A stretch of 64,000 bases of DNA from Eledone cirrhosa (Eukaryota), in the NCBI GenBank assembly GCA_964016885.1, contig OZ024745.1:88536001-88600000 (forward strand), given 5' to 3'. Shown here piece after piece: positions 3,332 through 58,012 of this stretch (position 1 is the first letter of the stretch; each line of letters begins with the position of its first letter). The notes under the pieces are model-generated. The model made no database searches and was not told where the DNA came from. It saw only the letters and a program-made list of their open reading frames with translations. The position numbers were made by a program, and so were the translations under genes.

Positions 3332-3781
3332 AAGTTCTATTTAAATAGTTGGGATACAACAAGCATATATTTTGATAACTGATATAAAGCACTCAACAAA
3401 TATTTGGAGTAAAAATACGATGTTAATAAATGGTAACTATATTTCTAAAACCATATTTATTTGATTATACAGATTTCAAGGACACCAAGTTAAATAATGG
3501 TGTGCTTTCATCAGATAAAATATAATATAGAACAGTTTTATAAATAAATATTGACAGACCGTTTAAGAATGCAATCATTACTGTTGAAAGCTCCTATCCT
3601 GGAGCTTCCAACAGTAATGCTTGCATTCTTTAAGGGTATGTCAATATTTATTTATAAAACTGTTCTATATTATATTTTATCTGATGAAAGCACACCACAA
3701 CTTAACTTCGTGTCCTTGAAATATGTATAATGAATTAAATATGGTTTTATAAATATATTTTCCAGTTATTAATATCGTATA
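3332..3781. mobile_element. Fold-back solo pseudo-LTR of a Naiad-type PLE with an HHR on each arm (minus ~3460-3520, plus ~3673-3737)
   Basis: Inverted arms ~3414-3594 and ~3601-3781 around the loop tatcct. The plus arm reads tattttat-CTGATGA-aagcacac..gtgtcctt-GAAA-tatgta-TA-atgaat. The sequence is homologous to the pLTR at 54081-54320. Confidence 0.85.
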
Positions 3782-4983
3782 TATATATATATATTTACAA
3801 TATATAGAAACACACAGATACATGCGGACACATACATATACATGAATGTATCCACATATATCTTTGAATTAGTGGTGCCAACCTCAACCGATGTTGCTCT
3901 ATGAATAACTGGGAAAAAATAATCCGAATGAATTAAATTGATTCAGTATCAGAGCTATATAATACATTATGAAGAGAGAAGAAACATTAGATATAATTAA
4001 TAATAAGATATACCATACCTAAACTCCTCGACTACGTAGTTTCGTGGCATATTATGCAAAAACACTACATCGCAGAGATATAGAATTTTTGTGAGGTCTG
4101 CCGACTTATCAAGAGGATACTTCATTCAGAGTTTCAAAACCCGTCCGTAGGGCGCGAGATAGAATCCCGAAAGGCGGAGGGGTGTCAATCACGTGATACA
4201 GTGGTCAAGATTTATATATATACACATATATATCAGTATATATATATATATATATATATATATATATATATATATATATATATATATATATATATATATG
4301 AGTATGTATATATATATATATATATATATATATATGAGTATATATATACATATAAGTATATATATATATATTTACTCATATATATATATGTATATATATA
4401 TATATATATATATACTCATATATATATATAAATATATATATATATACTCATATATATATATATATATATATATATATATATATATATATATATATATATA
4501 TATATATACATACAAGCAGGTACAAAAACCAATACACAAGAAATATATGTACAGAAAAAGCACACATACATATATTAGATGGAAAACAACGTTGATTGCA
4601 TACCTGTGTAGTCAGATTGAGTCATAGATGTAGATTATGTAGATTGCTGCATGAGACTATAAGGTTTAAATAATTTAAGTCTCCGAAAGATTTTGTGCTT
4701 GCAGAAAGAAACAAGTCCAGCGTGCGGATGACCCGTTTTATTTCGGAGAAATACTTTTAGTAAATCCGGTAGATTATAGCTTATTGATTATGTAGAAAGA
4801 AGTGGAGTTTCAGTCTATGATTTTCCAGGTGTTGATGTAAGGATATGGGTTGTTTTCTTGGATTTCAAGGACCAAATATCGATAGATATATATCTATCGA
4901 TATATATATATATATATATATATATATATATATATATATATATATATATATATATATATATATATATATATATATATATATAT

Positions 4984-5345
4984 AACGAAGGAAATGTGGT
5001 AAGGAACCAGGTGGACCATAACGCACCAAAGTACTCAATACTTGGGGTAGTAGACTGGTTCCTATATATATATATATATATATATATATATATATATATA
5101 TATATATATATATATATATATATATTTGTGTACATATTTATATATATGTATAATATATGTATATATATCAGAATGGTTGCAGTAAAGACCAGTTAGAGAA
5201 TTACTCTCTAGTGTACTCTATATTTAGTGTAGTAGAGTGGGTAATATGGAAAAAATCGGGTCCTCGACGGCTGAGCTCCGGCCTTTCAACAGCTAGATCT
5301 GAACTAGCTGTTGAAACTGCAGGAGCTCGACCGACGGCATGTAGG
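4984..5345. mobile_element. PLE pLTR-like family Y ending in a hairpin built from an HHR 3' half (interrupted by a TA tract)
   Basis: Shares gtggt..ccaggtggaccata..gcacca.agtactcaatactt.gggtag with 34178 and 51922. The terminal palindrome is centred on aacagctag-atctgaa-ctagctgtt. Confidence 0.65.
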
Positions 5346-5426
5346 TGTGCCTACCGACTTGATATTTATGATTAATATACAGTTAAGAATGACATATGTA
5401 TATATATAAATGTATATATACATATA

Positions 5427-54209: not shown

Positions 54210-54275
54210 TATTTCATTATATATATTTCAGGGATATCATATTAACAATATGCTATGCCTTCCTCAGACAAAATA
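54210..54275 (-). ncRNA. Type I HHR in the 3' pLTR
   Basis: tattttgt-CTGAGGA-aggcatagcatatt(gtt)aatatgatatccct-GAAA-tatata-TA-atgaaata. Confidence 0.85.
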
Positions 54276-55629
54276 CAATATAAACAGTTTTATAGATAAA
54301 TAGATTTGACATACCGTACAACATCGACTTGTATTTGAAAAGTTGAATTGGCAGTGAAAAAATTGTACACAGAGAGAAAGAAAGAGAGAAAAAAGGAAAG
54401 AAAGACAGAAAACGAAGAAAAAGAAGAACAAGAAGAAATGCATGGAACAAAATAGAGAGATGGAAAGATAGATAAAGAGAGGAGAAGAACTTCATGTAAA
54501 GAAACAGAGAGAGATATATATATAGAGAGAGAGGAAATAGAGATAGATATATATATATAGAAAACTAGGTAGTGGGAATATCCGTTGAGTAAACGTATCA
54601 ATGATACATTTATTTATTTATTTATTTATTTAGCTCTAGTATTAATGTAAGGGAGATATATGTGGTTAGGAGAGAAACCAGCTGTTATATATAGAGAAAA
54701 ATTAAAAATAACCAGACATAGGCGAGGCATAAAAACCCTATGTTTTAATGTAGAGGTATTAGTATGTATAAAAACCAGCCACTATATTGTAAATATCAGT
54801 ATTCCTGAATGAGACATGTATCCATAATGTGTGAAAAGTAATGATCTTATGTTTAGTTTTTAAAAAAAAATTCATATGTTTATGTGATAACTACAAACAT
54901 CTATGTGAATTTACATGATCAACTCTGCAAACCCTAAGTTCACGGAAAACATTCTCATTGTGCTATAAAAATTTAAGTATACATATATGTGTATATATAT
55001 ACACACATATATATATAGAGTCTATATTACTACTATTGTCTTTACTCTACAAGATTATCTATCAAGCAGAAATAGAGAGCAGATTTCAATATATTAATAA
55101 AAAAAATATATATCAGAAACAAAACCAAAAAATAACAATAATAATAATAATAATAAATAATAATAAAATAGAAAACTAAAAAATATTACGAAAGAATATT
55201 ACATATAAAAATATTACATATTAAAAATAAAAATATTAGAAAATACTACAATAATAAAAATAAACCACAAAGATCAACCCTTCAAAATTAATTGACAATA
55301 TATTGCCAAGTTCATTATAAGCATCAGAGTCGAAAAACAGATAAAACTAAACATTATTTATCAAATCGCATCTAGCAAAAATCATTTCAAAAAGTTTAGG
55401 ATGCCCATTTGGTCTACATGTGTTCTTATATTTAATATAGAAGTTTATCTAGTGTAACGTTTATTCGAAATATTTGGAGCATCAACTTTTAGGGTAGCTT
55501 AATTTTTCATGAAGAATGTTTAAATAAAAATAAAAATAAAAATAAAAAGAATAAAAAGAAGAAATCGAAAGATTTATCGGCTAGTTTCCCATATAATTAT
55601 AAATCAAACTAAATATACTACATTTTAAA

Positions 55630-57834
55630 TTAAAATTTATATTTAAAAGTTGAGTTTAATCTATGTTTGCAGCAACTGAATAAATTTGTCCGTAGATTAA
55701 GGGAATTTTTAGATTTTAGTATAAAGAATATCTCCTCTGCGCAGACGTCACATGTCTCAGAGGATGAATTAAAAGGAATCCCTCTTGAGACTATATTCCA
55801 AGCCGTCGAATATCTAACGTTATCTAGCTTAAGTTGCCAGAGTACGCCTGATAGTGCCGTTGAAGATTTTTTGCTTGGATCTGTGAAAGAATTCTTGTGG
55901 TTATTATAGCGAAGTTTAAATTCCGTCGATGTGGAACCGACGTAGTTAAAAGAATTAGAGTCAGTTTTAACATTACAATTGTATACTATATTTTTAACTA
56001 AGCAGTTGTTATTTAACGGACATTTAGATCTATCTCTACAGTTACATTTGGTAACTTGTATATTATTTATGCTATTATCACTAGGTTTTAAGTTCCTATT
56101 ATTTATTCTATTAATATTTTGTGCTAAATTTTTGGTGGATGAGTAGGTTAATTTTATAGTATGTCTATTGAAAATTGAGTGATACCTATGTGTTCTAGGG
56201 AAGCGATTATCAAGAGCTTTAAAAAATAGTTTAGCGATGTGGGTTTTAATGTTTAGTGAGAAAGGGGGGGGGGGCAAACCAAATTATGTTCCTAGTTCTA
56301 TTTCTTTTTTGGCCTTTGGAATTATTGTAATGCTTTCTATTATAGTTATTAAGGTTGTTGCCGTAATTAAAATAGTTGTTATTTTGTTTAGTTTGTCTAT
56401 CATTATCTATGTACATAATCTTATCAGTATATCCTGCTCTAGCTAATGCTTCATTGTAGTATTGGGCTTTTTCGTCGAAAATCTTTCTATTCGACGAGAT
56501 CCTAGAGATACGTTTTTGAACAGAGTTTACTATAGTGTTTTTGACAGATCTGGGGTGGTTAGATTTAAAGTTGACATAGTTTAAGTTTTCATTCAACTTG
56601 TGAAAAGGATAGTGAAGACATGTGTTGAGATTTAATGTTATATCTAGGAAATTGACTATTCTATGGTTGTTCTCAATTTCTATTTTAAGATTAAAGTAAT
56701 TACAAAATTGTGTAATTTGTTTACGTTTTCTATTTAGTTCAGAGTTATTATTATCAATAAGTAAAAGCATGTCATCTCTATATAAACCTCCGGTAGTACC
56801 AGGTATTTTCCTATGTAGCGAATTGATTAAAAATAAGCCCACAAGGTCAGTTACCTGAGCTGAGTCGGATGATCCCATAGTAATGTCAAAATTGCTATCT
56901 CTATCTGCTCTGGTCCATAGTTGGTCATTAAATTCTATCAAAGTTTTCCTAGCCGATAATATAATATGCATTTCATTGCTAGTTAGGTCAGTATGTTTGA
57001 ATGCGTAATTTAGTGCCTTATTTAGTAGATTAGGGGTAATAGAAGAAGAATAGTTAGCAATATCAAGTTGAATAAACTTATTATTATTGTTATATTTAAT
57101 TTGCTTAAACCACTCAACAACCTCTCCAGTTCCCTTCCACAAGCTCAGGTTAGATAAACAATCCAAGTTCTTAATTTGCTGTATCACCCTGTCAAGAATG
57201 TTTTTGCTTAATTTGCCCAGGTCCGATTTTGATGGTGCGATCAATCTAACTGGCAAGTCATTTTCAAAATTCCTCTTGTGTTCTTTCATATTGATCTTCG
57301 GTTTCCTGGGCACGAAAGGTTGTGTTCTGTTCTCAATTTCCAACTCGTGCATTATACAAGATGCTTCGACATTCATTTTCTCAAGCTCGGCCTTATCTTC
57401 TACCTTGTACTTTTTCCTCAGTTCCTTCAGTATGAGGCCATTATAGTGTCTTTCTGCACTCCATAGAGGTTGTTGGTCTTGTCAGATTTCACCAAGATCT
57501 TCTCAGTTCTCTCTAAGCTCTCAATATTATCCTTAATGCCTTTCAGATATTCCTGGCCTTTGAAGTTTCTCTTGAATTTGACCCCTTGTATGATAGAAAT
57601 TATATCGTTTTCAAAGTCAGATAAAAGTTTGTTAGGGGGTGGATTTCTTTTAGATTTGAAAACTTTGTTTAAGTCCGAGATATTTTCATTTATATTAGAT
57701 TTATCAAAGTGGAATGCTCGCCACCTGATTCTCCTTATAAAAGAGTCAGATTTCTCTATTAATTGTTTTATAAAGTCTTTGTTTCTAGGTAGAGGTATGT
57801 CTTTTAAAGAGGAAGTAATCTTAAAGAATTCCAT
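55630..57834 (-). pseudogene. PLE RT plus GIY-YIG endonuclease (Naiad-type), frameshifted
   Basis: MEFFKITSSLKDIP..DIANYSSSI..MGSSDS..GGLYRDD..FLD..CNCRDRSKC (CxCx5C)..IVY..YVG..FKLRYNNH..CDVC.EE..CKH. There is a -1 deletion near 57445 and a -2 deletion in the G-run at 56264-56274 relative to the other copy. Confidence 0.93.
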
Positions 57835-58012
57835 TTTTCCAGTTATAATATAAAGCGCTCAACAGTATTGGAGCAAGATACATGGAAAGTTATATTTAAA
57901 TTGTTGGGTTACAACTAGTAAATATTTATAACTGATATAAAAGCACTCGACAAGTATTTGGAGTATATTTACGATATTAAATAAATGGAAACTATATTTA
58001 TAAAACCATATT

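Follow-up and report, generated by a model that had tools for sequence, protein, structure and literature searches.

What does a short box that recurs near the 3′ ends of retroelements do for them? The question is raised by a 64,000-nt stretch of the 3.0-Gb Eledone cirrhosa genome (contig OZ024745.1, positions 88,536,001 to 88,600,000; hereafter the window), in which a preliminary description had noticed a GAGTRCTT-like motif downstream of hammerhead ribozymes. The 12 single sites that it named, three sites in a tandem array and one copy before an ATG are all present on the strands given, within a tolerance of about 8 nt. The G of GAG lies at 3394, 5036, 34223, 42241, 45562, 51075, 52216, 54145, 57948 and 57860 on the minus strand and at 20340, 44723, 46140, 47785, 48034 and 50919 on the plus strand. 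We found that the box supplies the 3′ arm of a stem with a bulge, NCUC-[inner stem, loop]-2-nt bulge-GAGN-RCUY, whose complementary arm upstream of the box had been missed, as had a further copy at 40906-40870 (−). A match at 37989 (+) looks like a chance one. The hairpin is a real, structured, clade-wide cis element within retroelements of a known kind, Penelope-like elements (PLEs) of the Hydra clade.

The identity of the elements was read from their marks and from the identity of their open reading frames (ORFs) rather than from a tree of reverse transcriptases (RTs), and on these grounds the motif-bearing families are Hydra-clade PLEs. This clade is marked by an RT with a C-terminal GIY-YIG nuclease, the motifs RW[K/R], DKT and CxCx5C, a 3′-proximal hammerhead and (TA)n targets (PMC8557442). 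The long element of the window had been called Naiad-type. Its nuclease is C-terminal to the RT and not N-terminal, it carries RWR, CxCx5C and DKT rather than DKA, and type I hammerhead folds are predicted at 54267, 58070 and 61968, where a Naiad element would have no canonical hammerhead. RxRW[R/I] was found in all five families and DKT in four of five as read, the window's plus-strand copy deviating and its minus-strand copy reading DKT. The nuclease of the Hydra ORF, read by eye, lacks CCHH and has the CxCx5C linker, and homologues of the window ORF align over its whole length. Nor are the families unrelated, as had been supposed: five of the window families have Hydra ORFs, the window ORF among them, with pairwise identities of 40-57%. 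Full-length copies in the 5034/34216, 44721, 52209 and 42233 families run on into ORFs of the Hydra type. The window elements also have the predicted hammerhead near the 3′ end and the (TA)n insertion. A Pfam search with pieces of the Hydra ORFs matched no family, and an Rfam scan of the window gave, among the best 150 of 218 matches, only microsatellite-driven miRNA matches, none at gathering score. Hydra elements and their derivatives are abundant and young, with 61,482 first-look candidates genome-wide, the top 150 of them at 97-100% identity.

To look beyond the window, we used a blind genome sample of 140 evenly spaced 10-kb stretches (1.4 Mb), so that loci were not hand-picked. The positional and strand bias of the motif holds there: 35 of 77 GAGTRCTT sites, which are family copies and not independent, have (TA)5+ 25-100 nt downstream, versus 4 upstream. 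For T[ACT]GAGTGCTT the figures are 19 of 32 downstream and none upstream. As a linear word the signal is weak, permuted 8-mers averaging 0.05 and the best of them reaching 0.42 versus 0.44 for GAGTGCTT. After de-duplication GAGTG exceeded its reverse complement by 48 to 25 (p=0.005 among 480 tests), and in a de novo search for k-mer polarity over 521 non-redundant (TA)n flanks zero words survived correction. The box is not shared by hammerhead-bearing families at large. Strict hammerhead folds, called by a descriptor and hence predicted from sequence, numbered 61 in the sample and 0 in shuffled sequence; among the 39 with a (TA)n end within 300 nt the box accompanies 7. Since these 7 all belong to one cluster of 28 (0/11 for the other folds), the box goes with some hammerhead families only and with a single kind of end. 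Relative to the 61 folds it was found downstream on the same strand 7 times and on the other strand never, and upstream on the same strand never and on the other strand, in the inverted partner, 8 times. The distance of 20-80 nt before (TA)n given in the preliminary description does not hold throughout: 45562 is 89 nt away, and around the three array sites, 57948 and 57860 a microsatellite is absent within 200 nt. The CTCCA noted before the box is indeed there, not as a second motif but as the 5′ arm and first inner base of the same hairpin.

The evidence for the stem itself comes from base pairing. A 2-nt bulge with at least 3 inner pairs was found in 12 of the 32 non-redundant motif clusters near (TA)n, compared with a shuffle mean of 0.9 and a maximum of 3 in 300; other bulge sizes gave 0-4 of 32 clusters, and motif sites distant from (TA)n formed the hairpin in 8 of 135 cases. 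We then assembled relatives from metagenomes, 78 loci at 32-38% protein identity (the best 80 of 405 having been retained), which fall into 65 clusters, with the ATG located in 54. The hairpin set comprises 79 metagenome and 8 window hairpins (n=87), after exclusion of the 4 of 83 boxes that had no Watson-Crick arm. Inner pairs 1, 2 and 3, which played no part in this selection, are paired in 86/87, 59/83 and 45/55 hairpins; the shuffle means are 67.2, 35.7 and 22.9, and none of 5000 shuffles, which take no account of relatedness among hairpins, reaches the observed values. The first inner pair is C-G in 60, U-A in 24 and wobble in 2. The outer pair also varies in concert (G-C 74, A-U 7, U-A 6), although this covariation is circular because the arms were selected by that very pair; within window-type elements it is A-U in hairpin A and G-C in hairpin B, the two copies described below. 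RNAalifold on a MAFFT alignment recovered the 4-bp outer stem alone, because unequal loop lengths misalign the inner stem. The possibility that the box is a self-complementary dimer-initiation site was dropped, its commonest form in relatives being centred on C and A and the box being engaged in the stem.

The loop between the arms ranges from 4 to about 180 nt. Three window families have long loops, of 74, 55 and 180-187 nt, whose arms were first spotted by eye, guided by the position of the element end; at 42241 and at the array sites the distant arm is the sole candidate within 230 nt. In full-length elements the hairpin is present twice, as A in the PLE 'tail' and as B before the ATG. The 46 metagenome clusters with at least 140 nt upstream of the ATG contain two boxes in 35 cases, three in 2, one in 8 and none in 1, with a median A-B spacing of 63 nt and box B at a median of 30 nt before the ATG. 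In the supplement of PMC8557442 the published Hydra-1_Ajap consensus starts with both hairpins, and two published Hydra consensus 3′ ends bear hairpin A. By eye, the 5′ end of Hydra-1_Crog in the same supplement has a variant hairpin with C-G at the place where U-A is otherwise invariant, and the Hydra-1_Obim consensus begins without an obvious box. Among L188, L190, L239 and L099:3867-4495, some Hydra relatives have degenerate or no boxes before the ATG, and in one 50917-type subfamily the arm and the box are just 4 nt apart and the inner stem is missing.

The ends of the elements keep a fixed relation to these hairpins. Families have two classes of 3′ end, a short one before arm A and a long one before arm B; of 300 ends classed in the genome sample, 181 are short, 112 long and 7 inside a hairpin. 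Stricter matching used 17 reference families, two of which are sister subfamilies. In the 13 with short ends (three represented by just 1-2 ends each and one more by 2), (TA)n starts, by family median, between −8 and −2 relative to the 5′ arm, with a mean of −6.3 and an SD of 1.5. Measured from GAG, the same ends lie at −21 to −193, so that the distance to the arm holds whatever the loop length. An end mode at −26 in one cluster disappeared at ≥85% identity and was therefore treated as cross-family matching, although it is still within the 300-end counts. In the long end of a window family the match reaches −3 from hairpin B in 15 rows, a match inflated by AT-rich sequence and with five rows probably representing one duplication. 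The occurrence of hairpin B after long ends was predicted beforehand and then found, 4-8 nt on, in three more window families. A genome pattern search placed it 6-7 nt past the long end in the 5034, 44721 and 42233 families (697, 336 and 492 matches, most of the 100 listed for each being one form), with a loop of about 105 nt in the 42233 family; in the 50917 family it was found in 1 of 3 matches, that is at one locus. Among the metagenome alignment ends, 12 of 23 lie 0-4 nt before arm A (7) or arm B (5), 6 compare different clusters and 5 are unexplained.

These distances bear on what kind of signal the hairpin is. A core promoter or a translation-control element near the start of the ORF, its nearness to element ends being incidental, would fit the short distance from hairpin B to the ATG and the suggestion that the pseudo-long terminal repeats (pLTRs) of PLEs contain promoter motifs (PMC3846280), and binding at hairpin B may affect translation as a second role. 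The stem covaries, however, while its loop is variable, the ends track the 5′ arm, a non-coding family retains both hairpins, and copy A stands far from any ATG at 3′ ends; as the main function it is extremely improbable. The conserved cis signal that the preliminary description had proposed is supported, recognition by the RT or endonuclease being the best of its options. The core-promoter option is unsupported, because the halves of the motif are paired with each other and covary across a distance of 14 to 187 nt, and because the ends keep their distance from the 5′ arm and not from the GAG box.

A second regularity concerns the way ends are combined. We identified 70 outward-facing pairs of ends within 6 kb, 160 ends being unpaired: 64 pairs consist of a long and a short end, 4 of two short ends, 1 of two long ends and 1 of two mid ends, against an expectation of 34.4 of 69 for long plus short (p about 2e-14). 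The one-sided tail of PLEs is already published (PMC8557442, PMC3846280), and the tail as an optional extension at one end of an inverted pLTR pair is what these 64 pairs display; its length differs from the 30-40 bp of a PLE tail, the A-B distance being 63 nt at the median in relatives and 90 nt in the window element. Of 79 hairpins, 69 have TA in the 8 nt ahead of the arm and 29 after the box. In Poseidon PAc the RT starts at two positions inside the RNA, one at each boundary of the tail, and needs RNA 3′ of the start; it extends both target strands, dispenses with hammerhead cleavage and is predicted to be dimeric (PMC11167929). The Hydra anatomy fits this model, because a hairpin sits just 3′ of each start.

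The observations to be joined are the stem with its fixed 2-nt bulge and covariation, its two copies, the end offsets, the TA patch and the long and short end of each inverted insertion. Taken together, they suggest that each hairpin probably binds the element's RT-endonuclease in the sense RNA and sets an internal cDNA start a few nt 5′ of the stem, on a UA-rich patch, with nicked (TA)n as the primer. A read-through transcript (pLTR-tail-ORF) would fold both hairpins, and two protein subunits would sit one on hairpin A and one on hairpin B. The endonuclease would nick both strands of the (TA)n target, and each nicked strand would pair with the UA patch that one hairpin holds in the active site and prime cDNA there. 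The cDNA begun at B would contain hairpin A and the tail, giving the tailed end, and that begun at A would not, giving the tailless inverted end; the two would face away from each other, joined at their 5′-truncated ends, and the tail would be simply the distance separating the two hairpins. In its wider form, a paired RNA address in which two copies of one bulged stem bring a dimeric, telomerase-related RT to two starts within one transcript, so that both cut microsatellite strands are extended at once, the proposal has an even chance. By eye, the PAc template has a stem with a 3′-side bulge at about +121 to +147, just past the +111-118 start and within the needed +172 (PMC11167929); this stem is a lead.

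Both end classes and the fixed distance from the 5′ arm would follow equally well if the hairpin caused the RNA to be cleaved, or its 3′ end to be formed, about 6 nt upstream, as the processing site offered in the preliminary description would, with the RT starting at the new 3′ end by ordinary target-primed reverse transcription (TPRT). We consider this unlikely, since the PAc start is internal and unmoved by extending the RNA 3′ end (PMC11167929), and since strict long plus short pairing needs two templates or sites used together, for which RNA cleavage alone is insufficient. A signal at the DNA level would fix both the ends and tandem junctions: the hairpin would be recognised in donor DNA, single-stranded or extruded, by a protein that nicks next to it. 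Some copies do also start at (TA)n 4-14 nt ahead of an arm, Watson-Crick pairs make up most of the stem, and the tail of D. virilis Penelope was necessary for the endonuclease to recognise plasmid DNA (as cited in PMC11167929). Duplex DNA is nevertheless an ill match for loops that reach about 180 nt while their closing pairs are conserved, the ends join new (TA)n targets, where TPRT starts, and the element codes for an RT and has a hammerhead on the sense strand, all of which makes this reading quite unlikely. The strand of the template is a further issue. On an antisense RNA the protein-bound hairpin could act as a stop before A, or before B on read-through, much as a telomerase template-boundary element does; the geometry is identical on the opposite strand, and an antisense self-primed template has been proposed for PLEs (PMC3846280). 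PAc, on the other hand, initiates on sense RNA at the tail boundaries (PMC11167929), the TA patch matches the target primer, and just 7 of 300 ends lie inside a hairpin, where read-through stalls would be expected, so that we regard an antisense stop as very improbable.

Several results weigh against internal initiation at the hairpins on sense RNA. The strict hairpin test within 55 nt fails in 20 of the 32 clusters near (TA)n, some of which we take to be antisense reads, long loops or chance. The asymmetry between G-U and A-C at inner pairs 1-3, 14 to 6, supports the sense strand weakly. Exceptions to the end rules comprise the seven ends inside a hairpin, 5 of 17 same-cluster metagenome ends that are not beside an arm, and the 6 of 70 inverted pairs that are other than long plus short; TA microhomology blurs the positions of ends in any case. 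The 52209 family has a long end and no clear hairpin B in the 6 loci read. Finally, the hairpin is not a general PLE signal, because a non-Hydra family with a CCHH nuclease makes two ends without hairpin or box. This family, at 5501-6378 (+) in the window, is a PLE with a CCHH-type C-terminal GIY-YIG and a core at 6088. Its ends are of both kinds, short and long, its tail measures about 45-60 nt, and it is a candidate for a different end signal.

The full-length window element lies on the minus strand. Its upstream pLTR and tail carry hairpin A at 57941..57964 (ACTC arm 57964, 3 inner pairs, TC bulge, box 57948); hairpin B follows at 57853..57874 (GCTC arm 57874, 2 inner pairs, TT bulge, GAGC box 57860), its arm 90 nt from arm A and its box, the extra copy of the preliminary description, 18 nt before the ATG at 57834. 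The ORF, at 55630..57834, is broken into three frame pieces here and encodes the RT followed by the C-terminal GIY-YIG. The terminal tail has hairpin A at 54138..54161 (−), with the hammerhead core at 54267 and a long end that meets (TA)n near 54080; the inverted, 5′-truncated partner copy at 58430..62066 (+), with a hammerhead at 61968, has a short end about 7 nt before the expected arm A. A sister subfamily has hairpin A at 3387..3410 (−), with its core at 3514, a long end at 3328 and an inverted short-end partner ending at 3777 (+). Short-end partners likewise accompany hairpin A at 34216..34243 (−; 4 inner pairs, long end 34177, partner 34356+), 42234..42315 (−; arm 74 nt ahead of its box, 3 inner pairs, partner on the plus strand), 44702..44730 (+; 5 inner pairs, hammerhead 44597, long end 44785, partner 44367−) and 45555..45583 (−; 3 inner pairs, long end 45466, partner 45802+). 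Further hairpins A were found at 40870..40906 (−), the copy absent from the preliminary description, downstream of a CTGATGA core at 41039; at 50896..50926 (+; 6 inner pairs, long end 50996); at 51068..51130 (−), where the arm is 55 nt before the box and the inner stem is broken, with 4 pairs in most relatives; and at 52209..52231 (−; 3 inner pairs), of the family without a clear hairpin B. Two boxes stand without their arm. The box at 5029..5036 (−) lost it at the inverted junction of a short copy, a second worn copy lying nearby at 5207-5245 (−), and the box at 20340..20347 (+), in an old Hydra copy with ORF remnants at 17300-18751 and a hammerhead at 20240, had it deleted here and kept in relatives.

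The array at 45955-48560 consists of a non-coding unit of about 1 kb with a CTGAYGA core and twin hairpins with loops of about 180 nt, also found at G000:C2:312323073-312330605. One module at 45958..46147 (+) has its arm 182 nt before the box and 2 inner pairs; the twin hairpins at 47598..48041 (+), with arms at 47598 and 47854, 187 and 180 nt before their boxes, have 9 and 7 inner pairs and belong to such a unit of about 1 kb. Dispersed copies stop about 6 nt before the first arm, a tandem array occurs on C2, and the unit is likely a non-autonomous Hydra derivative. In the hammerhead-like fold of the 5034/34216 family (L279:1335, L291:1335) the core is UUGAGAA, with U3-A8 replacing C3-G8, a swap that hammerheads can tolerate, and stem II has a long loop. 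Short window copies of this family retain only the 3′ half of the fold. L309 (G000:C1:89657103-89660138), in which a 52209-family tail is fused to the ORF of a different, canonical-looking PLE, is a possible chimera or template switch. Two further core-bearing loci have no box: a retrozyme-like 442-bp tandem repeat at 12908-14185 (+; 2.9 copies, 96% identical), in which every copy has GAAA and a CTGACGA core, and an inverted pair at 44863-45428 with CTGAGGA cores at 45077 (−) and 45209 (+) and two ends of similar length. Fragments of a non-LTR retrotransposon with zf-RVT, in several copies, lie at 10228-10566, 11861-12581, 34807-35196 and 52500-53399.

How a PLE chooses its RNA, and why its tail is one-sided, are questions that have been open for about twenty years, and in the sole in vitro PLE system, PAc, the binding site had been narrowed to 172 nt. 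With a conserved stem of about 14 nt at a fixed offset to both ends, the problem comes within reach of mutation. The stem is also a target for structural work on telomerase RT's closest relatives, and it supplies a simple annotation rule for Hydra elements and their non-autonomous derivatives. If the hairpin does bind the RT, it would be the first defined RT-recognition structure of a PLE, and tail and inverted ends would be explained in one step. If the address is indeed paired, it would be a portable tag making any RNA a template, because loops of about 180 nt are tolerated and both hairpins persist in non-coding units.

The Hydra clade, the one-sided tail and internal initiation were already known. 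The window elements agree with the published Hydra clade (Craig et al. 2021, PMC8557442) in domains, motifs, hammerhead and (TA)n targets, the window unit being about 3.8 kb with a long 3′ untranslated region versus 'generally <3 kb'. Section 11, the passages and the supplement of that paper do not describe the hairpins, 'hairpin' and 'stem-loop' having 0 matches in the supplement. Nor did we find twin hairpins described in the literature searched, which included parts of PMC7229834, PMC13282606 and the retrozyme preprint, subscription journals, Repbase notes and figure images being unsearchable. Poseidon_Ac (Frangieh et al. 2024, PMC11167929) is alike in its optional extension on one of two inverted pLTRs, its two bounding starts, the required RNA 3′ of the start, the AT-rich target and the predicted dimer. 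It differs in belonging to another clade, in its tail of 30-40 nt versus about 55-90 nt in Hydra here, and in a binding motif bracketed to the first 172 nt of the ORF, whereas both putative Hydra starts precede the ATG; its start is called an AC-rich stem-loop, no conserved twin structure being given in the text available. Non-LTR retrozymes (PMC7229834; bioRxiv 10.64898/2026.07.22.740005) are likewise non-coding, hammerhead-like and tandem; the portions seen name no cis signal beyond the hammerhead, whereas the 45955-48560 array keeps both hairpins with loops of about 180 nt. The array retains the PLE end signal, as expected of a non-autonomous PLE derivative. In the telomerase template-boundary element, hepadnavirus epsilon and the 3′ stem-loops of LINEs and SINEs, a short bulged stem binds the cognate RT and fixes its start or stop. 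The Hydra stem resembles these by description only, and is set apart by being doubled, by lying 3′ of the copied region and by a primer that is likely the target DNA.

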